Source: Escherichia phage p000y. Taken from it: DNA of 64,000 nucleotides. Shown piece after piece: positions 1 through 63,786 of this stretch. The translations under genes and the position numbers were made by a program. The DNA is taken from the sequence record MK047718.1. One strand, written 5' to 3'. How positions within the stretch are numbered: position 1 is the first letter of the stretch; each line of letters opens with the position of its first letter. A model generated the notes under the pieces. That model was given only the letters and a program-made list of their open reading frames with translations, was not told the origin of the DNA and did not search any database.

Positions 1-1397
1 GCCATAACGTAATTGTTAACTGGTGTGATATTATTCCTGACTTTGGTTCATGGTCTTGGAATGTTAACGCAATCTATGTTAAGGGTGATGAATGTCGATA
101 TAATTTCGATGGTGAAAATATCACTAACGTAGGTTCAACAGGTGGTAATGTTGTAGGAATTTATCAGTTCAAAGACTGGGAATTCTACATGGGTTCTACT
201 GATGAGGAAATTCACGAATACTGCAAAGGTCGTGATTTCGTAGAATTCCTTTACGGCAGTGCATTCAATAAATCAGAGCTTATGAATCTAATTGATTTAG
301 GTGATATGCCTAAACTTGAAAAGGCTCATGAAGTTCGTGAACTGAATCGTAGTTTTAATGCAGTTGAAATTGGCGAAGAAACTGTAACTAAATTCGCGTT
401 AACCGAACAAGGTCGAGCTCTTCAAAAAGATGAGATTTCATGGTATTTGAAAGTGAAATCAGATTCAGTTCCTCAGTTAGTTTCGGTAAATGAAAATAAT
501 TTTGAAATGGAACGTATTAAAGGTAAGCCGGCATTTGAATATATTAAATCCAAATCAAGTCTTGCTCGTCCACAAATTGTTGATGCAATTTTAGATGCAC
601 TGAAATTCAGCACGGACACTTATTTTGTAAGTCCTGAAACTGTTCGCCGTGATTTCACTAAAGAGTTCTATACGAAAGTTATTGATCGTTGTGAAAGCAT
701 TCAGCCATTGATTGATTCATTTGGTAAAATCACACACGTGAACTACACTAAAATTGGACGTCTGAAGCCAATGTTGAAACAAGCTTTAGAACATCTTATT
801 CGTTATCATAACCGTTCTCAGGGACAGTACTCTGTTATTCATGGTGACCCGAACTTCAGTAATACTATGATTACCGATAACGGCGAAGTCAAGTTTATCG
901 ACCCTCGTGGATATTTTGGTGAAACCAAGATTTACGGGCCAAAATTATATGATGAAGCTAAAGTGCTTTATGCTGTTTCAGGTTATGATGAATTCAATGC
1001 TAATCCGACCTGGGGACAGTTTACTATTGATGAAACAACTTGTAATGTGACTATTAACATCAATCCATTAGTTTACAAATATGGAAAGATGAGTTCGTTT
1101 AACGAGTATCATCATTTGGCTGTAGCAATTATCTGGATTGCATTAGGTGGTTATTTCAAGAATAATCCACTTAAAGCGGTTGCCGCATATTATAAAGGTA
1201 TGGAACTTCTGACTAAGCAATTACGTAACATGGGCCGTGTACTTCAAGACGGCTCTATTAGTTATGACGTAGCAGAACCTGTAACGGCTACTCTGATTAC
1301 AAAAAATCCTGGTAAATGGGTACTAACTGATAAAGAAACTGGTGTTTCCTATCGTCCAATCGGCGGCGATATCACTCATCAATGGGAACGAATCTAA
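1..1397 (+). CDS. 5'-truncated fusion protein: C-terminal part of a LicC/MurU-like nucleotidyltransferase joined to an APH/choline-kinase-fold (LicA/AmgK-like) kinase
   Basis: Frame 3 is open from the window edge (HNVIVNWCDIIPDFGSW...GGNVVGIYQFKDWEFY) into tracked ORF 189-1397, so the first Met is not the real start. The kinase half has the HxDxxxxN signature (IHGDPNFSN) followed by Mg-binding FIDPRG. The NTase assignment of the N-terminal remnant is weak. Confidence 0.55.
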   Translation, partial: HNVIVNWCDIIPDFGSWSWNVNAIYVKGDECRYNFDGENITNVGSTGGNVVGIYQFKDWEFYMGSTDEEIHEYCKGRDFVEFLYGSAFNKSELMNLIDLGDMPKLEKAHEVRELNRSFNAVEIGEETVTKFALTEQGRALQKDEISWYLKVKSDSVPQLVSVNENNFEMERIKGKPAFEYIKSKSSLARPQIVDAILDALKFSTDTYFVSPETVRRDFTKEFYTKVIDRCESIQPLIDSFGKITHVNYTKIGRLKPMLKQALEHLIRYHNRSQGQYSVIHGDPNFSNTMITDNGEVKFIDPRGYFGETKIYGPKLYDEAKVLYAVSGYDEFNANPTWGQFTIDETTCNVTININPLVYKYGKMSSFNEYHHLAVAIIWIALGGYFKNNPLKAVAAYYKGMELLTKQLRNMGRVLQDGSISYDVAEPVTATLITKNPGKWVLTDKETGVSYRPIGGDITHQWERI

Positions 1398-1783
1398 TGC
1401 ACCGTGTAGAAAACATGCTTAATCTTTGTTTTGATGTCGATGATTGTATAACAGAGTGGAATAACAATCGTGATTACGTGAACTTCAAACCAGACGTCGA
1501 AATGGTGTCTGCCATTAATGCCCTGTATGATGCAGGGCATACCATAACGCTTTACACTGCCCGTGGTATGAAGTCGGTAGGTCCTGGTCGTATAGCAATT
1601 GACATTCTCCCAAGTCTGATTCAGAACTTGGAAAACATTGGTTTGAAGTACCATAATTTGCTAACACATAAACCAGTATATGATTGGATTATCGACGACA
1701 AAGCTATGCGTCCTGACGAATTCAAAGCTCTTATGAATAAAGGCGAATTCGAAACATTTAAATCATATAAACCAAATCTATAA
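1397..1783 (+). CDS. small HAD-superfamily phosphatase
   Basis: ATG at 1397 overlaps the upstream stop (TAATG). HAD motif I is FDVDDCIT near the N-terminus, motif II LYTARG, motif IV WIIDDKA. 128 aa. Confidence 0.6.
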   Translation: MHRVENMLNLCFDVDDCITEWNNNRDYVNFKPDVEMVSAINALYDAGHTITLYTARGMKSVGPGRIAIDILPSLIQNLENIGLKYHNLLTHKPVYDWIIDDKAMRPDEFKALMNKGEFETFKSYKPNL

Positions 1784-1829
1784 TAATTTAAGTAAGACCT
1801 GCAAAAACCATCGCATCAATTAACGCGAG

Positions 1830-2999
1830 ATGCAAAAAATGAATACTTTTAAAATCGGAACGAATTTTGATTTAGCTCTTCTTGATAAAATCGTAGAGCT
1901 CAATAAAACCTATCCTAATAGCTTGATAAACGAAGTATATGGCTCTACAAGAGAAATGGCTTTTGTAGCAGCCAGACCTGATTTTAGGCTTCCTGACGTT
2001 GACAAAAAGATGTTAGAAGACTACGTTAAACGTTGTAACGAATTAGGTATTTGCTTTAACTATACACTCAACACGATAAATCCTGGTTCAAAAAGAGAAC
2101 TAGTTGAGTGGAAGAAGAAAGCTATTCAGGATTATGTTCAGTATCTTTGGTCAATAGGCGTATGGCGTATTACTATCGCTAACCCTGTTGTTATGGAAAT
2201 TGTTCGTGAAGTCAATAAAGATATTGAGATTGAAGTTTCAACAATTCTACATGTCGATGCGGTAACTCAAATCAAATACTTACATGACCAATATAACATC
2301 AAAAAGGTCTGTTGCGGAATTCATAAGAACCGTTCAGTTTCTTTCCTGAAGCGTGCAGCAGAGTTTTGCAATAAGAACAATATAATATTTGAAGTTCTTG
2401 TAAATGAGTTCTGTTCTAATGCTGGTAAAGGGTATACAACACATTGTAGTTATCGTGACTCTTGCTATATTTTCCATAGTACTGATGTTACCGCTGATGA
2501 TGCTAAATCCTTAAATGGATATCCTATGCAGCACTGTATTAAAGCTCGTGATACAGACCCATTTAACTGGTTGAGAACTCGTTTTGTTCGTCCTCAAGAT
2601 TTGAAACTTTATAATGATATTGGTATCACTCAATTCAAAGTTTCAGGACGTACAGGTAGCACAGACTACATTTTGAAAGTTCTTGAAGCATACGCTTCTG
2701 AAAAGTTTGAAGGTAATTTGTTAGAACTGTGGAAGCCTTTAGAGACTATTTTCACTCTTGAAAATGAGACTGAGTTTTCACATACAGTAAATATTGAAAC
2801 CTCTTTGTTAGATGGCTTTTTAGAAAAAAGGTGGTTCAGACATCCAGATTTTGATTGTGCTAATGAAATCTGTGGGTCAACGTGTACATATTGTGAAAGG
2901 TATTATAAACGTCAATTATCTAAAAACGGGTTAGCAGAAAACTCCATATCTATTATTGATATAACTAACTCTGATGACGCTTTGAGGTACCCGGAATGA
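1830..2999 (+). CDS. peptidase-U32-family protein (TIM-barrel, Cys-rich / Fe-S type)
   Basis: 389 aa with a UbiU/YhbU-like layout. N-terminal FKIGTNFDLALLDKIVEL, CFNYTLNT, central Cys cluster EFCSNAGKGYTTHCSYRDSC...HC, and ITQFKVSGRTGSTDYILKVLEAY (compare the family KIEGR segment). Extra C-terminal CANEICGSTCTYC cluster. Confidence 0.6.
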   Translation: MQKMNTFKIGTNFDLALLDKIVELNKTYPNSLINEVYGSTREMAFVAARPDFRLPDVDKKMLEDYVKRCNELGICFNYTLNTINPGSKRELVEWKKKAIQDYVQYLWSIGVWRITIANPVVMEIVREVNKDIEIEVSTILHVDAVTQIKYLHDQYNIKKVCCGIHKNRSVSFLKRAAEFCNKNNIIFEVLVNEFCSNAGKGYTTHCSYRDSCYIFHSTDVTADDAKSLNGYPMQHCIKARDTDPFNWLRTRFVRPQDLKLYNDIGITQFKVSGRTGSTDYILKVLEAYASEKFEGNLLELWKPLETIFTLENETEFSHTVNIETSLLDGFLEKRWFRHPDFDCANEICGSTCTYCERYYKRQLSKNGLAENSISIIDITNSDDALRYPE

Positions 3000-3235
3000 T
3001 TTCTAGAAAAAGTTTTAATTATAAACTTAACGAAGAGATTTTGACTATGAAACTGAACACTAACGAACAAATTCTTAAAAAGGCCCTTATGGGCCTGTTT
3101 GAAACCAAAGCGGCTAAAGTGATTAAAGAACCTGTTCAATTGGAATACTACACTGATGCATTCCTTCATAGTGTTCTTGGAAGTATAGATTCTGAAGCTT
3201 TACGTTATATCAACATTGTCAAGAAATTCAAATAA
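2996..3235 (+). CDS. hypothetical protein (79 aa)
   Basis: ATGA overlap with the U32 stop suggests translational coupling. No recognisable family. Confidence 0.5.
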   Translation: MISRKSFNYKLNEEILTMKLNTNEQILKKALMGLFETKAAKVIKEPVQLEYYTDAFLHSVLGSIDSEALRYINIVKKFK

Positions 3236-3258
3236 GCTTTACGAATTGAGTATATAAT
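3235..3258 (+). promoter_or_regulatory. MotA-dependent middle promoter (hydroxymethylase-like gene)
   Basis: MotA-box-like AGCTTTA 3235-3241, 11-nt spacer, -10 TATAAT 3253-3258. Confidence 0.5.
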
Positions 3259-3277
3259 AAATTGTATTGAGGTAAAC

Positions 3278-3994
3278 ATGGGAAAACATAACACAATGAA
3301 ATATATCAAAGCCGCAGATTTTCAAACCGCATTTAAAGCAGTCAATCGTGAAATTTTAGAAAACCCGGAATTCGTAACTGATTCTCGTATTGGACGTTGT
3401 AATGAAATTGGGTCTATGACAGTAGTTGTTGACACTCCATCATCATTCAAAATGACCGACCCACGTATTAACCGCATCTCTTATGAATATGCCGAAGACT
3501 TCTGGAAGTTTATGATTTCTGGTGGTACCAACGCAGAAGAAGCGTTTAAGGCATATCCTAATGTCGCTAAATTTATTTCTAAACCAAAATCAGATGTTTT
3601 GCCGGCGAACTTCAACACTTTCTATGGTCCTCGCATTGCGGCCCAATTACCAACTCTTCTAAAAGAACTTAAAGAAAAACCTAACTCTCGAAGAGTTGTG
3701 TTCCAAATTCTAGAAAGTTCTGATCAGGCTTTGCTTGATTCGGACGAAACACTTGAATATCCATGTACTGACTCAGTAACTTATTATATTCGTGATGGTA
3801 AGCTTTATACCCACTGTCATATGCGTTCTCAGAACTGTGCTGTTGTTATGCAGTTGGATTTTTATCTCCAAGGAAAATTACTTCATTATATCGCTAACGA
3901 ATGCGGTGTAGAAGTTGGTGATTATACTCATACCATGGTAAGTGCCCATGTGTTTGAACGTGATTTTGATTATGTTAAAGGATTCCTTGACTAA
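3278..3994 (+). CDS. thymidylate-synthase-fold deoxycytidylate hydroxymethylase-like enzyme (gene 42 position, divergent from T4 gp42)
   Basis: TS-family blocks NSRRVVFQI, catalytic Cys in EYPCTDSVTYYIRDGKL, HMRSQNCAVVMQLDFY with Asp where true TS has Asn. GAGG SD lies 8 nt upstream and a MotA-box promoter sits at 3235-3258. Confidence 0.7.
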   Translation: MGKHNTMKYIKAADFQTAFKAVNREILENPEFVTDSRIGRCNEIGSMTVVVDTPSSFKMTDPRINRISYEYAEDFWKFMISGGTNAEEAFKAYPNVAKFISKPKSDVLPANFNTFYGPRIAAQLPTLLKELKEKPNSRRVVFQILESSDQALLDSDETLEYPCTDSVTYYIRDGKLYTHCHMRSQNCAVVMQLDFYLQGKLLHYIANECGVEVGDYTHTMVSAHVFERDFDYVKGFLD

Positions 3995-4893
3995 TGGCTA
4001 TTTTCCGCGTACCAATCTTGAGTATGCGGTCTTATGAAACTGGACAGTATGCTATCCTTAAGGATGGCAACTTCCAACTTCATTTGCACCGTGCTAATCC
4101 GGGTGATGTGATTACATATCCACGTAATGCATCTGATATTAAAGAATGCGAACGTCTTTTCCCAGAATTTAAGTTTGTTCCATTATGGTATAAAGATAAC
4201 GCGTATAACACTCGTAAATATTTCTGGACTGAAAATGAATTTGTGGTTGATTCATTAATTGATTATTATGATTGTGATTTTCTAATCACAGATATCACTG
4301 GTTATGGCGGCGCTTTTGATGTGGAATTCAATTTCAATATCACTGCAGACCCTAATAAACCACGTTTTTATATTGATGAATTCTTAAAAACCGACATGTT
4401 GTCTGTTAATCGTTCACTTCAAACTACTGTGTTGAATGAACGTCAAAAAGAAGTGCTGGTTAACGCAGGTGCAGATGGTAATAAGATTATCGTAACGCAG
4501 AAAGTTATACGTCCTTCCATCATGCAGCGTCTTGTAGGTGATTTGGCTCCTATTCATCTAGATGGTATTTTTCATCCATTTCGAATTAGTGACCCATGTT
4601 ATCGTTTTGAACAAGTGGTTGAATGTGCAATTCAATTAGGTCAACCGCTTTATATAACCGATCCAAATAATAGCTTCGACAGAAATAAGTATCCTGAAGA
4701 AGCGCTGATTCGAATTTTTAAACCAACTAAAACTGAGTACTATCAAATTCTTAAAGGACGTCCGAAAATTCAATATTTCGAAAATCCTGAAGAAGTATTC
4801 CATCCAGGTCTTGGTGAGTTCATCTACTTTAATGCTTTAATTTCTTCGCCGTATAATATACCTAAATACGAAGATGTCGTAATCGAGGAATAA
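3994..4893 (+). CDS. hypothetical 299-aa protein in the T4 beta-glucosyltransferase slot; candidate DNA sugar transferase
   Basis: TAATG-coupled to the hydroxymethylase-like gene and lying between it and uvsX, where T4 has beta-gt. No motif I can assign firmly (HPFRISDP, FHPGLGEF). The function is inferred from position only. Confidence 0.45.
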   Translation: MAIFRVPILSMRSYETGQYAILKDGNFQLHLHRANPGDVITYPRNASDIKECERLFPEFKFVPLWYKDNAYNTRKYFWTENEFVVDSLIDYYDCDFLITDITGYGGAFDVEFNFNITADPNKPRFYIDEFLKTDMLSVNRSLQTTVLNERQKEVLVNAGADGNKIIVTQKVIRPSIMQRLVGDLAPIHLDGIFHPFRISDPCYRFEQVVECAIQLGQPLYITDPNNSFDRNKYPEEALIRIFKPTKTEYYQILKGRPKIQYFENPEEVFHPGLGEFIYFNALISSPYNIPKYEDVVIEE

Positions 4894-4894
4894 A

Positions 4895-5443
4895 ATGGCT
4901 AAAATTATTTTAGTAGATGGCCCGGATAATGCTGGTAAAACAACTTTCATTAATGACATAATGGAAATTAGTGAAAGATATGTAAAGATTGATTTCCCTA
5001 AACGAACAGTTGATGGACGTTTCGATGTTAAGTCTCGAAATGAAGTTGGCTGTTTCGAAACGATGTTGAATTATTTAGACCCTACTAAGATTTATCTGTT
5101 AGACCGTGGATATATTAGTAACTGGGTTTATGGACGTATTCGACAAGATGCGGACTCGATTCTTGACGTTTATGAACAGGACTATGTTCGTCTTTGCCAA
5201 AACCATGATGTGTTCACAATTATTTTAACACGTAACGAAATGACTGAAAGTTTTGAAGACGACCTTATTACTTTGTCTTCATTCGGTTTTAATACAGTCA
5301 TTTCACATTTTGAAGAGTTTGCAATTCATAACAAAATCCAAACGTATCAATTACTTAATCATGATGGTGCTAACAAAGTTATAGGATTTAATGCAAGCGA
5401 ACGTAATTATTTGATTACAGAAATTATCAAATGGGCTCGTTAA
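4895..5443 (+). CDS. P-loop thymidylate-kinase-like (d)NMP kinase
   Basis: Walker A GPDNAGKTT near the N-terminus and a TMK-like DR[YH] motif (DRGYISNWVYG). 182 aa. Unlike T4 gp1. Confidence 0.6.
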   Translation: MAKIILVDGPDNAGKTTFINDIMEISERYVKIDFPKRTVDGRFDVKSRNEVGCFETMLNYLDPTKIYLLDRGYISNWVYGRIRQDADSILDVYEQDYVRLCQNHDVFTIILTRNEMTESFEDDLITLSSFGFNTVISHFEEFAIHNKIQTYQLLNHDGANKVIGFNASERNYLITEIIKWAR

Positions 5444-5463
5444 GAGCCATTTAAAGTTTTAAA

Positions 5464-5488
5464 TGCTGTATAACCCTTAGTATATAAT
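5464..5488 (+). promoter_or_regulatory. MotA-dependent middle promoter (uvsX)
   Basis: MotA box variant TGCTGTA 5464-5470, 12-nt spacer, TATAAT 5483-5488. T4 uvsX is a classic middle gene. Confidence 0.6.
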
Positions 5489-5541
5489 CATCTTATCTTT
5501 TAAACATGAGTAAAATATAATGATGCCTATGGAAAAATACA

Positions 5542-6714
5542 ATGTCTGATTTAAAATCTCGTCTGATTAAAGCTTCTACTTCTAAAATGACTGCAGACTT
5601 GACTAAGTCTAAGCTGTTTAATAATCGTGATGAAGTCCCTACTCGTATTCCGATGTTGAATATTGCATTAGGTGGTGCACTGAATGCCGGGTTGCAATCA
5701 GGCTTAACTATTTTTGCTGCTCCTTCTAAACACTTTAAAACGTTGTTTGGGCTGACCATGGTTGCAGCATATATGAAGAAATATAAAGATGCAATCTGTT
5801 TGTTTTATGACTCAGAATTCGGTGCTTCAGAATCTTATTTTCGTTCAATGGGTGTTGATTTAGACCGTGTAGTTCATACTCCGATTCAATCTGTCGAACA
5901 ACTTAAAGTTGATATGACTAATCAGCTTGACGCGATTGAACGCGGTGATAAAGTTATTATCTTTATCGATTCAATCGGTAATACTGCATCTAAGAAAGAA
6001 ACCGAAGATGCGTTGAACGAGAAAGTTGTAGGTGATATGTCTCGTGCTAAGGCACTTAAATCTCTGTTTCGCATTGTGACCCCGTATCTGACTATTAAAG
6101 ATATTCCGTGTGTTGCAATTAACCATACCGCAATGGAAATCGGCGGACTATATCCTAAAGAGATTATGGGTGGTGGTACAGGTATTCTTTACTCTGCTAA
6201 CACTGTATTCTTTATCTCTAAACGTCAGGTTAAAGAAGGTACAGAATTGACCGGTTATGACTTCACGTTGAAAGCAGAAAAATCTCGTACAGTTAAAGAG
6301 AAATCTACTTTCCCAATCACAGTTAATTTTGATGGTGGTATCGACCCATTCAGTGGCTTGTTAGAAATGGCAACTGAAATTGGTTTTGTAGTTAAGCCTA
6401 AAGCCGGGTGGTATGCTCGTGAATTCCTTGACGAAGAAACAGGTGAAATGATTCGTGAAGAGAAATCATGGCGTGCTAAAGCTACTGATTGTGTAGAATT
6501 CTGGGGACCGTTGTTTAAACACAAACCTTTCCGTGACGCAATTGAAACTAAATATAAACTAGGTGCTATCTCTTCTATTAAAGAAGTTGATGACGCTGTT
6601 AATGACCTTATTAATTGCAAAGCAACAACTAAAGTTCCGGTTAAAACTTCTGATGCTCCGTCTGCAGCAGATATAGAAAACGACCTTGATGAAATGGAAG
6701 ATTTCGATGAATAA
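5542..6714 (+). CDS. uvsX: UvsX RecA-like recombinase
   Basis: Near-colinear with T4 UvsX as I recall it (MSDLKSRLIKASTSK..., GGGTG, acidic C-terminal tail). 390 aa. Confidence 0.97.
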   Translation: MSDLKSRLIKASTSKMTADLTKSKLFNNRDEVPTRIPMLNIALGGALNAGLQSGLTIFAAPSKHFKTLFGLTMVAAYMKKYKDAICLFYDSEFGASESYFRSMGVDLDRVVHTPIQSVEQLKVDMTNQLDAIERGDKVIIFIDSIGNTASKKETEDALNEKVVGDMSRAKALKSLFRIVTPYLTIKDIPCVAINHTAMEIGGLYPKEIMGGGTGILYSANTVFFISKRQVKEGTELTGYDFTLKAEKSRTVKEKSTFPITVNFDGGIDPFSGLLEMATEIGFVVKPKAGWYAREFLDEETGEMIREEKSWRAKATDCVEFWGPLFKHKPFRDAIETKYKLGAISSIKEVDDAVNDLINCKATTKVPVKTSDAPSAADIENDLDEMEDFDE

Positions 6715-62793: not shown

Positions 62794-63786
62794 ATGTTAC
62801 CTGTCGTCGGAAAACTTATTTCTCCAAAAGAACTGGCTGAGATTATTCCTTTGTCGGAAGCTTACGCATCACAAGTGGCTTCTCATCGCGAACAAGTTAA
62901 TTCGATTATGAACGGTGAAGACCCACGCAAACTTATTGTTGTAGGTCCTTGTTCAATTCATGACCCTATTGCTGCTGTTGAATACGGCAAACGTCTGGCT
63001 GAACTTCAAACTCGTCTTCCTAATGTTCTGTTAGTGATGCGCGTTTATTTTGAAAAGCCTCGAACTACCGTAGGTTGGAAAGGTCTTGTAAATGATCCAT
63101 ATCTTGACGGAAGTTTTGATATGAACCACGGTCTTATAGTTGCACGAACATTGTGTCGTAAACTTCTACGTATGGGACTTCCATTAGCAACTGAAGTATT
63201 AGACCCATTCACGATTAAGTATCTTTCTGGTATTTTCTCATGGGTTGCTATTGGCGCCCGTACGACTGAAAGTCAGACACATCGTGAAATTGCTTCAGGT
63301 CTACCGATGTGCGTAGGCTTCAAGAACGCAACCAATGGTTCTATTAAAGTAGCTACAGACGCGATGTATAGCGCCGCCTGGCCTCATCGGTATATGGGTA
63401 TGGACGTCGATGGTACTGTAGGCATTGTTGAAGCTGAAGGTAATCAGAATACGCATATCGTATTGCGTGGCGGGACCAACGGCCCGAACTATCATTCTTC
63501 TGATATTCAAGAAGCTTCTAACAAAGCAAGTGCAGTAGGTCTGAATCATTATGTAATGGTTGACTGTAGCCATGCAAACGCTGCTGGGCATTATAGCAAT
63601 CAAATTGGTATTGGTAAAAATTTAGCAGCTAATGATTTGGTCAAAGGAATTATGATAGAATCATTCCTACATGAAGGAAATCAAAAAATTTCTGATAATA
63701 TGTCCTATGGCGTTTCCGTTACCGATGCGTGCATCAGTTGGGAACAAACTAAAGAGCTGTTAACTTATATTAATAAGGTTCAATAA
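62794..63786 (+). CDS. 3-deoxy-D-arabino-heptulosonate-7-phosphate (DAHP) synthase, class I-alpha (AroF/G/H-like)
   Basis: 330 aa colinear with E. coli AroG. LIVVGPCSIHD, MRVYFEKPRTTVGWKGL.NDP, IGARTTESQ.HRE.ASGL, VGFKN, ILRGG, DCSHAN, MIESFLHEGNQ, SVTDACISWE. AAGGA SD. Confidence 0.9.
   Translation: MLPVVGKLISPKELAEIIPLSEAYASQVASHREQVNSIMNGEDPRKLIVVGPCSIHDPIAAVEYGKRLAELQTRLPNVLLVMRVYFEKPRTTVGWKGLVNDPYLDGSFDMNHGLIVARTLCRKLLRMGLPLATEVLDPFTIKYLSGIFSWVAIGARTTESQTHREIASGLPMCVGFKNATNGSIKVATDAMYSAAWPHRYMGMDVDGTVGIVEAEGNQNTHIVLRGGTNGPNYHSSDIQEASNKASAVGLNHYVMVDCSHANAAGHYSNQIGIGKNLAANDLVKGIMIESFLHEGNQKISDNMSYGVSVTDACISWEQTKELLTYINKVQ

Follow-up and report, generated by a model that had tools for sequence, protein, structure and literature searches.

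A U32-family protein in the arabinosyl-5-hydroxycytosine cluster of Escherichia phage p000y as a candidate prephenate-dependent, oxygen-independent pyrimidine hydroxylase

In this study, we analysed a stretch of 64,000 nucleotides from Escherichia phage p000y (MK047718.1), here called the window, which carries a gene for a U32-family protein near its start and a gene for a DAHP synthase near its end (Table 1). The phage is an RB69-like Mosigvirus. Bases 1-6000 share 99.3% DNA identity with Mosigvirus p000v, and the U32 protein agrees with RB69 ORF050c at 99.2% identity. The U32 gene lies inside a DNA-modification cluster, between a HAD phosphatase and the thymidylate-synthase-like 5hodCMP synthase, and the gene order around it matches that of the RB69 cluster (PMC13326640, Table 1). 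Synteny and near-identity place this part of the window in the arabinosyl-5-hydroxycytosine (arabinosyl-5hoC) cluster that comprises gp45-gp55 in RB69 and the Afh genes in HY126. Arabosylated 5-hydroxycytosine occurs in RB69 DNA, and with 18O-labelled O2, gp48 incorporates the label (PMC13326640). HAD phosphatases of the AfhF family convert Araf-1,5-P2 to Araf-1-P. The bifunctional nucleotidyltransferase/kinase gene begins upstream of the window.

Table 1. Position of the genes discussed in the text (window coordinates).
Feature	Coordinates	Strand	Remarks
Sugar-1-P nucleotidyltransferase/kinase, 3' part (RB69 gp52:53 / AfhE family)	1..1397	+	frame open from base 3
HAD phosphatase (RB69 gp51 / AfhF family)	1382..1783	+	TIGR01689 50 bits, below curated cutoff 162
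U32-family protein, putative Fe-S	1830..2999	+	PF01136, 5D88 fold match, two conserved four-ligand Cys sites
79-aa small ORF (RB69 ORF049c family, phrog_8601)	2996..3235	+	start overlaps U32 stop (ATGA)
5-hydroxy-dCMP synthase, thymidylate-synthase homologue, O2- and flavin-dependent	3278..3994	+	98.7% identical to RB69 gp48
DNA arabinosyltransferase 1 (RB69 gp46:47 family)	3994..4893	+	
Nucleotide kinase (RB69 gp45 family)	4895..5443	+	
Class I-alpha DAHP synthase, AroF-like, N-terminus ~8 aa shorter	62794..63786	+	NCBIfam, AroF identity

The U32 open reading frame encodes 389 aa; the family consensus and the RefSeq annotation of phage p000v indicate that the ATG at 1839 is the likely true start, which gives a protein of 386 aa. 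Residues 97-289 match PF01136 (Peptidase_U32) with E=7.4e-11 and 42.2 bits, against a gathering score of 22.4, and the same domain is precomputed in Pfam for nearly all homologues. An AlphaFold2 model of the protein (pLDDT 92.7, pTM 0.91) was compared with the PDB by Foldseek. The top match was 5D88, the U32 protein Mk0906 (E=9e-7, TM 0.72 target-normalised), and the remaining matches were generic TIM barrels; a sequence search of the PDB returned no match. Domain match and model together uphold the U32 assignment made in the preliminary description of this DNA, and the TIM-barrel fold agrees with Table 1 of PMC13326640. A search of the whole 64,000-nt window found no second U32 gene.

Within the U32 family, the phage protein is not an orthologue of TrhP, RlhA, UbiU or UbiV. 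Among the NCBIfam models, UbiU alone responded, with 18.4 bits where the cutoff is 440; the TrhP and RlhA models gave no match. When the phage family was aligned with the E. coli U32 proteins by hhalign, the best match was RlhA (probability 81%, 205 columns); those to TrhP and UbiU were weak, and the comparison with RlhA was the only informative one. A MAFFT alignment with E. coli UbiU, UbiV, TrhP and RlhA, at 14-24% identity, placed the cysteines unreliably and was set aside in favour of the profile comparison. The family profile gathers 1,714 cluster representatives at E<=0.001 and 487 clusters at E<1e-30, the latter mostly from uncultured phages. Judged by sequence, the phage U32 proteins are a divergent, separate subfamily of U32.

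The protein contains two cysteine groups, C195-x10-C206-x5-C212...C236 and C343-x4-C348-x3-C352-x2-C355, exactly as they had been described beforehand. All eight cysteines are invariant in 65 homologues with 46-87% identity. In 123 representatives with 23-49% identity, C195 is retained in 121/123, C206 and C236 in 123/123 each, and C343, C348, C352 and C355 in 116-118/123 each, while the position of C212 is occupied by Cys in 74 and by His in 48. The eight positions are thus conserved down to 23% identity, C212 being either Cys or His; C161 and C180 are invariant among the closer homologues only. These two conserved four-ligand sites are putative metal sites, at which the protein would bind iron-sulfur clusters. 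The spacing of the first group (CX10CX5CX23C) does not retain the canonical pattern of Fe-S U32 hydroxylases, CX6CX15CX3/4C, from which UbiU and UbiV likewise depart. In the hhalign comparison, the phage C206 and C212 align on the first two cluster cysteines of RlhA.

The DAHP synthase that had been noticed in the window is a class I-alpha enzyme with a full-length match to the aroFGH equivalog (TIGR00034, 427 bits against a cutoff of 173; PRK12755, 455 bits against 343) and is 51% identical to E. coli AroF over 330 aa. Chorismate mutase is the enzyme that produces prephenate, and an HMM search of the 64,000-nt window yielded none (best E=0.08). Since the window has no chorismate mutase and the DAHP synthase lies 60 kb from U32, the link to prephenate is here one of phyletic pattern only. 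Among T4-like relatives, a PF01817 chorismate mutase directly follows U32 in 7/7 tested loci (36-50 bits, gathering score 27), and HMM searches placed an AroQ chorismate mutase between U32 and the gp48 homologue in 13/15 loci. By tblastn, chorismate mutase was detected in 52 of 50,697 GenBank phage records, all from U32-bearing T4-like groups; where the annotation of a record shows the flanking genes, these are U32 on one side and thymidylate synthase on the other. In Serratia phages LC53 and 92A1, a chorismate mutase match occupies the position that adjoins U32 in other Serratia phages of the group. The catalytic residues of the E. coli enzyme (R11, R28, K39, S84 and Q88) are all invariant in the phage proteins, but a deletion of ~12 aa around residues 48-52 of the T4-like ones speaks against taking their activity for granted. 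The T4-like phage chorismate mutases are candidate prephenate makers with a predicted activity.

The preliminary description had proposed that the phage may pair a U32 hydroxylase with a boosted supply of prephenate. Co-occurrence of U32, DAHP synthase and chorismate mutase was compared by host counts and identity bands. In GenBank phage records, tblastn detected U32 in 221, DAHP synthase in 212 and the gp48-type synthase in 345, and the host breakdown of the DAHP synthase records is almost identical to that of the U32 records. Dhakavirus Bp7 and Acinetobacter phage Apostate (Lazarusvirus) have no U32 in their clusters of sugar, gp48, glycosyltransferase and kinase genes, which keep the same gene order, and by record counts the Dhakavirus and Acinetobacter phage groups have essentially no DAHP synthase or chorismate mutase. 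This pattern and the chorismate mutase beside U32 in most T4-like relatives support the proposed link. Against it counts that a small number of independent gains or losses lies behind the co-occurrence seen in T4-like phages. Phage DLP3 makes arabinosyl-5hoC without any U32 (PMC13326640); therefore, the sugar pathway does not need U32. Missing from DLP3 and from the syntenic clusters of Bp7 and Apostate, U32 is an accessory part of the arabinosyl-5hoC cluster, at least in air.

The link to prephenate recurs in unrelated uncultured phages. U32 adjoins a class I-beta DAHP synthase in loci L008 and L023; the 248-aa neighbour in L008 was also considered as a KDO8P synthase, which would have suggested a link to arabinose-5-P, and was assigned to DAHP synthase by 237 bits against 63. 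Fusions of DAHP synthase and chorismate mutase occur near U32 in L034, L036, L037, L039, L048 and L141, and a stand-alone chorismate mutase adjoins it in L041, L043, L045, L046, L049 and L051 and lies ~2 kb away in L138. Counted by U32 lineages at 70% identity, a shikimate-pathway gene is present within 10 kb of U32 in 7/28 and absent from that distance in 21/28. The IMG/VR scan for DAHP synthase used exact peptide patterns, where a missing match does not mean absence. In six non-T4 loci the order is MazG-like pyrophosphatase, nucleotide kinase, glycosyltransferase and U32 (the pyrophosphatase is missing in L031 and L052), and U32 stands there in the place of gp42 of T4. Across 35 non-T4 loci, an AfhE-like gene is found nearby in 17, a HAD phosphatase in 16 and a SIS isomerase in 10; a dCMP deaminase, which stands beside U32 in L005-L007, and a dUTPase/dCTP-deaminase-family gene lie near U32 in 7 loci each. 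None of the 35 has a gp48-type gene within 10 kb of U32, and two thymidylate-synthase matches, one in these loci and one on a MAG contig, proved to be canonical ThyA. Redox partners (ferredoxin, flavodoxin) were not recognisable beside U32 in the non-T4 loci. The U32-bearing uncultured large phages also carry glycosyltransferase, sugar-activation, dCTPase-like and kinase genes. U32 matches in genome collections were all on MAG contigs, most of them assigned to anaerobic gut lineages; the lineages include Lachnospiraceae, Oscillospiraceae, Erysipelotrichales, Eubacteriaceae and Gastranaerophilaceae.

Prephenate has been shown to be the oxygen donor in the UbiU/UbiV pathway, and a role as prephenate-donor hydroxylases has been proposed for RlhA (ho5C in 23S rRNA) and TrhP (ho5U in tRNA); as of 2024, in vitro reconstitution had yet to be achieved for any U32 hydroxylase (PMC10990095). 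On the basis of the genomic evidence, we consider it reasonably probable that the phage U32 protein is a prephenate-dependent, O2-independent pyrimidine C5 hydroxylase and the anaerobic counterpart of gp48. The protein would take the oxygen for C5 of a pyrimidine from prephenate, not from O2, and its substrate would most likely be dCMP, converted to 5-hydroxy-dCMP, or alternatively cytosine already in DNA. The preliminary description had left a pyrimidine nucleotide, a DNA base and the sugar moiety as targets. Because the published product of the cluster is arabinosyl-5-hydroxycytosine, C5 of cytosine is the obvious target among these, and the sugar is disfavoured. A role as anoxic isozyme would make sense because the known hydroxylase, gp48, needs O2, and in T4-like phages of facultative anaerobes U32 would be its anoxic counterpart. 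A parallel is that T4-like phages have one ribonucleotide reductase for aerobic and another for anaerobic conditions. In uncultured large phages linked to anaerobes, U32 would probably be the sole maker of the hydroxyl to which glycosyltransferases attach sugar. Several observations speak against this reading: the protein is orthologous to none of the characterised U32 hydroxylases, the canonical cysteine spacing is not kept, the window has no chorismate mutase, 21/28 U32 lineages have no shikimate-pathway gene within 10 kb, Dhakaviruses infect E. coli without U32, and in many non-T4 loci U32 accompanies sugar-activation genes, which fits a sugar role too.

One prephenate would be spent per hydroxylation. 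With ~63,000 cytosines per genome and a burst of roughly 100-200, this would amount to ~10^7 hydroxylations per cell, and the phages may carry DAHP synthase and/or chorismate mutase because ~10^7 prephenate molecules per cell would be consumed. The DAHP synthase of the window is proposed to raise the flux toward chorismate and prephenate for U32. It is tempting to speculate that U32, joined by chorismate mutase and/or DAHP synthase, forms a self-contained viral module for the O2-free synthesis of 5-hydroxy-pyrimidine deoxynucleotides, which would back up gp48 in T4-like phages of enterobacteria and be the sole source of the hydroxyl in a large, uncultured set of phages of strict anaerobes; we regard the chances for and against such a module as evenly balanced.

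That U32 might instead act on the sugar branch, as a reductase or another tailoring step in NDP-arabinose synthesis, is suggested by the adjoining HAD phosphatase and nucleotidyltransferase-kinase genes, by the AfhE-like, HAD phosphatase and SIS isomerase genes counted above, by a GenBank annotation as 'putative enzyme involved in UDP-arabinose biosynthesis' and by the label 'sugar or heterocycle reductase' in Table 1 of PMC13326640, the only mention of U32 in that paper. We consider this unlikely, since DLP3, Apostate and Bp7 hold the whole sugar module without U32, and the product of DLP3 was determined as arabinosyl-5hoC, with the same sugar as in RB69. Moreover, the six loci with the kinase-glycosyltransferase-U32 order and L005-L007 have U32 without nearby sugar-activation genes, and the adjoining chorismate mutase or DAHP synthase points to prephenate chemistry, whose only known use is to hydroxylate aromatic or heteroaromatic rings. 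A hydroxylase with a substrate other than dCMP, namely cytosine in DNA, dUMP or a second hydroxylation, would be backed just as well by everything that speaks for the prephenate link; variants would be a post-replicative repair of unmodified cytosines and a conversion of dUMP to 5-hydroxy-dU in some phages. RlhA and TrhP act on polymers, and the dCMP deaminase and dUTPase/dCTP-deaminase-family genes near U32 would also fit. Such a substrate nevertheless seems rather unlikely to us: the phage U32 is short and has none of the C-terminal extensions of TrhP (453 aa) and RlhA (652 aa), the arrangement of pyrophosphatase, kinase and U32 fits a nucleotide-level route, and the nucleoside analysis of RB69 is reported to show only arabinosylated 5hoC replacing cytosine.

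Modification of RNA (ho5U34 in phage or host tRNA, or ho5C in rRNA) to tune translation, with the location in the cluster being incidental, would be in line with RlhA as the closest E. coli match and with the tRNA genes that T4-like phages carry. It appears very improbable, because U32 stays linked, across about 28 lineages from unrelated phages, to genes of glycosyltransferases, nucleotide kinases, pyrophosphatases and replication, has no RNA-binding extension and forms a distinct clade out of reach of the TrhP and RlhA NCBIfam models; the small prephenate demand of RNA modification would also not explain the DAHP synthase and chorismate mutase genes. Database names, used by most records, are what speaks for a real peptidase ('collagenase-like protease'), next to which DAHP synthase and chorismate mutase would separately boost aromatic amino acids or folate. 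This is hardly credible given the eight metal-ligand positions conserved to 23% identity and the characterised U32 proteins, which are linked to O2-independent hydroxylation and of which UbiU and UbiV bind [4Fe-4S] clusters. Furthermore, chorismate mutase draws chorismate away from folate and makes no amino acid without prephenate dehydratase or dehydrogenase, and by tblastn of GenBank phage records the T4-like type of this gene occurs only next to U32.

Known systems offer several parallels for the preferred reading as pyrimidine hydroxylase. RlhA (YdcP), which acts on C2501 of E. coli 23S rRNA, has in common with the phage protein the PF01136 TIM-barrel domain and a 'C-Y-I-x-H-A' stretch around the cluster cysteines, and its chemistry, a prephenate- and Fe-S-dependent, O2-independent hydroxylation of cytosine C5, is the one proposed here. 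However, RlhA, at 652 aa, is drawn out by a long C-terminal extension and serves one rRNA position, whereas the phage proteins have about 360-390 aa, hold their third and fourth cluster ligands elsewhere, possess an extra C-terminal CX4CX3CX2C site and, encoded in a DNA-modification operon, would act ~10^7 times per infected cell. For tRNA ho5U34 (TrhP/TrhO) and for ubiquinone (UbiU-UbiV versus UbiI/H/F), E. coli has both an O2-dependent enzyme and a prephenate-dependent U32 enzyme for one hydroxylation, which covers the whole oxygen range; the viral counterpart would be the pair of gp48 and U32, with the difference that the genes for prephenate supply come with the phages. UbiU and UbiV are short as well and have a small-molecule substrate, but they form a heterodimer with one cluster each, whereas the phage U32 would hold two clusters in one polypeptide. 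RB69 gp48, DLP3 gp80 and the HY126 homologue share the cluster and the proposed product with U32, and nothing stands between the gp48 and U32 genes but the small ORF or, in relatives, chorismate mutase. In contrast, gp48 has an unrelated fold and a flavin cofactor, takes its oxygen from O2 instead of, as proposed for U32, from prephenate, and its type is absent within 10 kb of U32 in the non-T4 loci. The pathway of T4 runs over gp56 dCTPase, gp42 dCMP hydroxymethylase, gp1 dNMP kinase and glucosyltransferase. In the six non-T4 loci with kinase and glycosyltransferase directly upstream of U32, 4/6 of which also have the MazG-like pyrophosphatase, U32 replaces gp42; it belongs to another enzyme family with another co-substrate, and its hydroxyl would sit directly on C5, with no methylene.

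For 5-hydroxycytosine in phage DNA a single route has been published, and it needs O2, though these phages infect gut bacteria. In the literature searched, no statement connects phage 5hoC with U32, with chorismate mutase or with DAHP synthase, and the earlier remark that no phage modification pathway uses a U32 enzyme still holds there. The phage U32 is probably an O2-independent cytosine hydroxylase of a kind new to the literature searched. If such a route exists, it would explain phage replication in anoxic habitats and would predict anoxic replication for Mosigvirus and relatives, not for Dhakavirus or Acinetobacter phages, which bears on the choice of phages for gut therapy. It would also give a function to three orphan phage genes, labelled peptidase, hypothetical protein and aldolase in databases, and stoichiometric use of prephenate, at ~10^7 molecules per burst, would account for viral shikimate-pathway genes. 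Prephenate-dependent U32 hydroxylation would gain a tractable model in a phage enzyme that acts on dCMP; as part of the proposed module, this enzyme would also be the first U32 hydroxylase whose substrate is small and soluble. Potentially, a whole class of anaerobic DNA hypermodification, chemically not yet seen, would be represented, and the 487 U32 clusters point to many undiscovered glycosylated hydroxy-pyrimidine DNAs in anaerobic microbiomes.

The small ORF behind U32 fills the slot that adjoins the chorismate mutase position of relatives. It has no Pfam match at E<=0.1, and a derivation from a diverged chorismate mutase was rejected, as the phage chorismate mutase HMM does not match it. 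It belongs to a separate family (cluster 391, phrog_8601), which is present alongside chorismate mutase in both Yersinia phages and L024.

In this study, the genes neighbouring U32 (the peptidase-U32-family gene of the window and its homologues) were clustered across 50 viral and metagenomic loci. At T4-like loci, a small ORF immediately 3' of U32 clustered with DAHP synthase fusion proteins, and in 7/7 phages tested, from different genera, Pfam assigned it to AroQ chorismate mutase (PF01817; 36-50 bits, gathering score 27). With a chorismate mutase HMM, this gene was detected between U32 and the homologue of gp48, the O2-dependent 5-hydroxy-dCMP synthase of RB69, in 13 of 15 T4-like loci; it was missing from the Mosigvirus locus and from that of the Marfa-type Klebsiella phage. 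By tblastn it was present in 52 of 50,697 GenBank phage records, all from U32-bearing T4-like groups (hosts Klebsiella, Serratia (including LC53 and 92A1), Yersinia, Enterobacter, Edwardsiella, Erwinia, Providencia, Pectobacterium, Shewanella and others). Where neighbours are annotated, it is flanked by U32 and thymidylate-synthase genes, and a few depositors already name it chorismate mutase. The catalytic residues of the E. coli enzyme (R11, R28, K39, S84 and Q88) are invariant in the phage proteins; the T4-like versions lack ~12 aa near residues 48-52 and are putative chorismate mutases. Prephenate is the product of chorismate mutase. It is needed for the hydroxylations that depend on the E. 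coli U32 proteins RlhA (23S rRNA) and TrhP (tRNA), and in the UbiU/V (ubiquinone) pathway it donates the oxygen. In the window, chorismate mutase is absent and the DAHP synthase lies 60 kb from U32.

Among GenBank phages, U32 was found in 221 records (Escherichia 136, Klebsiella 26, Shigella 14; Acinetobacter is not one of the hosts listed) and the I-alpha DAHP synthase in 212 with similar hosts (124, 25 and 12, respectively), in line with the pairing suggested in the preliminary description; however, these records represent few independent evolutionary events and the statistics should not be over-read. The gp48-type synthase is present in 345 records, including 57 Acinetobacter phages and ~40 more Escherichia phages. 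Direct inspection of Dhakavirus Bp7 and Lazarusvirus Apostate revealed no U32 at its slot, with sugar-activation genes, gp48 homologue, glycosyltransferase and kinase retained in unchanged order, and identity-band counts could accommodate neither DAHP synthase nor chorismate mutase in the two groups. Yersinia phages possess U32 and chorismate mutase and apparently lack the I-alpha DAHP synthase, while Mosigvirus and Marfa-type phages possess U32 and DAHP synthase without chorismate mutase. Therefore, each assessable U32-bearing T4-like group carries at least one shikimate-pathway gene, and the U32-less groups essentially none.

Uncultured phages that have DnaE-type polymerases (on contigs as long as 466 kb) also encode U32 homologues, of 45-58% identity. 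In L008 and L023, the gene directly 3' of U32 is a type I-beta DAHP synthase, a DAHP synthase-chorismate mutase fusion adjoins U32 or is one gene away in L034, L036, L037, L039, L048 and L141, and a stand-alone chorismate mutase follows U32 directly in L041, L043, L045, L046, L049 and L051 and ~2 kb downstream in L138 (these seven were outside the HMM seed, E ~1e-15). After near-duplicates were collapsed at 70% U32 identity, 7 of 28 lineages had such a gene within 10 kb of U32, most having none nearby. The association arose more than once, as the DAHP synthases are of three architectures (I-alpha, I-beta, and an I-beta-chorismate mutase fusion). Functional coupling of U32 to prephenate supply is probable. 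Assignment of the L008 and L023 neighbour as KDO8P synthase was rejected (63 bits, against 237 as DAHP synthase). In the jumbo phages among these loci (L041, L043, L045, L046, L048, L049 and L051; contigs 148-294 kb), U32 and chorismate mutase adjoin one or two RimK-like ATP-grasp genes and several conserved Pfam-less proteins, and an extra, degenerate HAD phosphatase copy that has lost its DxDG motif is also present. The modification made there may therefore be more elaborate, possibly with ligation of amino acids. Class I-alpha DAHP synthase genes (40-48% identity) were also numerous on IMG/VR contigs labelled as giant-virus MAGs (GVMAG; L072-L123), where they could be real auxiliary genes or binning contamination.

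The preliminary description had read the ORF as a 389-aa U32 protein with eight cysteines, and ORF calling confirmed the frame and Pfam (PF01136 Peptidase_U32, E=7.4e-11) the family. An AlphaFold2 model (65 homologues) reached a pLDDT of 92.7 with the U32 protein Mk0906 (5D88) as best solved match, the remaining fold matches all being generic TIM barrels. The sole NCBIfam match was UbiU (18 bits, cutoff 440), and a PDB sequence search with the window U32 gave no match. By sequence, this protein is placed outside all characterised U32 subfamilies. The family profile recovered 487 clusters at E<1e-30 from a library of 1.8 billion representatives, and the phage-type proteins are accordingly classed as a sizeable, separate subfamily. 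RlhA, the 23S rRNA ho5C synthase, alone among the E. coli U32 proteins aligns over the whole U32 domain (probability 81%, 205 columns), its first two cluster cysteines corresponding to phage C206 and C212. All eight cysteines are invariant in 65/65 homologues; among 123 representatives at 23-49% identity, C206 and C236 were kept in all, C195 in 121 and C343, C348, C352 and C355 in 116-118, while C212 was Cys in 74 and His in 48. Cys/His exchange at one position is typical metal-ligand behaviour. The cysteines are read as two putative metal sites, the first, although spaced non-canonically, a likely counterpart of the U32 [4Fe-4S] site; departures from the canonical CX6CX15CX3/4C are likewise seen in UbiU and UbiV. 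That this is a U32-family metal-binding protein is almost certain. L139, on a MAG assigned to Bacillota, encodes two U32 paralogues, 4 kb apart and only 22% identical, recalling the UbiU-UbiV heterodimer.

Coordinates of features in the window and on individual contigs
Feature	Sequence	Position	Strand	Remark
Nucleotidyltransferase-kinase, 3' part	window	1-1397		enters from upstream
HAD phosphatase	window	1382-1783
U32	window	1830-2999	+	389 aa
79-aa ORF	window	2996-3235	+
Thymidylate-synthase homologue (gp48 type)	window	3278-3994
Glycosyltransferase	window	3994-4893
Nucleotide kinase	window	4895-5443
uvsX, gene 41	window			beyond nucleotide kinase
DAHP synthase	window	62794-63786
DAHP synthase region	L137	4829-6402
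U32 paralogue	L139	7983-9095
U32 paralogue	L139	13224-14357
Radical SAM/SPASM protein	L005	1314-2249		466-kb contig
UDG-DnaE-type polymerase	L006 and L007	1423-3561

Over its first 6 kb, the window shares 99.3% identity with Escherichia phage p000v (Mosigvirus, RB69 group), and the gene order around U32 agrees with the RefSeq record. Family consensus and RefSeq annotation suggest that the true U32 start is the ATG at 1839 (386 aa). The start codon of the 79-aa ORF overlaps the U32 stop (ATGA), suggesting translational coupling. This cysteine-free protein could be a U32 partner; it belongs to the conserved small family phrog_8601, which has further members in Pectobacterium PM2, Yersinia phages and L024, where chorismate mutase is present as well. 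The AfhE-like gene (sugar nucleotidyltransferase-kinase) is truncated at the window start, where the ORF finder shows only the stretch from an internal ATG at 189; its frame is open from base 3, in contrast to the split ORF052/053 of the RB69 reference, ascribed to sequencing error (Lee et al., PMC13326640).

RB69 DNA contains mono- and poly-arabinosylated 5-hydroxycytosine, not arabinosyl-hmC, and the 5-hydroxy-dCMP is produced by gp48, a flavin-binding thymidylate-synthase homologue, with the oxygen traced to 18O2 (Lee et al., NAR 2026, PMC13326640, citing He et al. 2026 for in vitro confirmation of O2 as the source). The window homologues are 98.7% identical to gp48 and, for U32, 99.2% identical to RB69p050, which is labelled "sugar or heterocycle reductase" in Table 1 of that paper and nowhere discussed. 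According to its Discussion, which cites the papers on RlhA and TrhP, neither of the other two known routes to hydroxylated pyrimidines uses gp48 homologues; RB69's own RlhA/TrhP homologue goes unremarked. Outside He et al. 2026 and Mahler et al. 2025, no paper in the literature searched ties phage 5-hydroxycytosine to U32, chorismate mutase or DAHP synthase.

U32 is also accompanied by sugar genes: near it in the 35 non-T4 loci, we observed glycosyltransferase (24), AfhE-like (17), KdsC-like HAD phosphatase (16) and SIS isomerase (10) genes. Three points favour the base rather than the sugar as U32 target. The sugar module is complete in DLP3, Apostate and Bp7 although all three lack U32, and the DLP3 product is arabinosyl-5hoC, with the same sugar as RB69 (PMC13326640). 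Six loci have a nucleotide kinase and a glycosyltransferase immediately upstream of U32, and four of the six have a MazG-like pyrophosphatase ahead of these genes, a layout equivalent to T4 dCTPase, dNMP kinase and glucosyltransferase with U32 in the place of gp42; in L005-L007, dCMP deaminase precedes U32. No gp48-type gene was found within 10 kb of U32 in any of the 35 non-T4 loci; these operons thus provide transferases and sugar donors, but nothing apart from U32 that is a candidate for making the hydroxyl to be glycosylated. Thymidylate-synthase matches in L025 and L148 (a MAG contig) were canonical ThyA (244 and 380 bits; window gp48-type protein 57). In L005, U32 shares its nucleotide-metabolism block with a radical SAM/SPASM protein that matches the viperin family weakly; MazG-like pyrophosphatase, thymidylate kinase, UDG-family and dCMP deaminase genes belong to the block too. 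In L006 and L007, and in L026, L030, L038 and L052 (UDG cluster, about 900 aa), a UDG-family domain forms the N-terminus of a DnaE-type polymerase (PHP domain) adjoining U32, an unusual architecture in phages probably carrying modified pyrimidines.

We propose that U32 would bind Fe-S clusters and oxidise the pyrimidine ring, with prephenate as hydroxyl donor after the scheme proposed for UbiU/V; the product would be 5-hydroxy-dCMP, to be phosphorylated, incorporated and arabinosylated. Pyrimidine hydroxylation for DNA modification is the somewhat favoured function, and dCMP as the specific substrate a tentative choice. A 168-kb genome at 37.5% G+C has ~63,000 cytosines, so that at a burst of 100-200 roughly 10^7 prephenate molecules would be needed per cell, by our estimate on the order of one cell generation's Phe and Tyr demand. 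Such a large stoichiometric demand would account for the carriage of DAHP synthase and chorismate mutase. Compared with E. coli AroF, the phage DAHP synthase has 51% identity and an N-terminus ~8 residues shorter; in AroF, tyrosine feedback inhibition involves this region, and the shortening is a lead only. In p000v, the dCMP deaminase gene (cd) starts right at the DAHP synthase stop, just past the window end.

In the species-representative genome collection, U32 matches were MAG contigs in every case, mostly assigned to anaerobic gut lineages (Lachnospiraceae, Oscillospiraceae, Erysipelotrichales, Eubacteriaceae and Gastranaerophilaceae), and several share operons with the uncultured-phage loci. 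T4-like U32 carriers infect facultative anaerobes, and phages of the strictly aerobic Acinetobacter lack U32; however, Dhakaviruses, which infect E. coli and lack U32, are a counter-example. NrdAB is encoded in the window and nrdD is present in RB69 and relatives; T4-like phages thus own aerobic and anaerobic ribonucleotide reductases, a precedent for isozyme pairs across two oxygen regimes.
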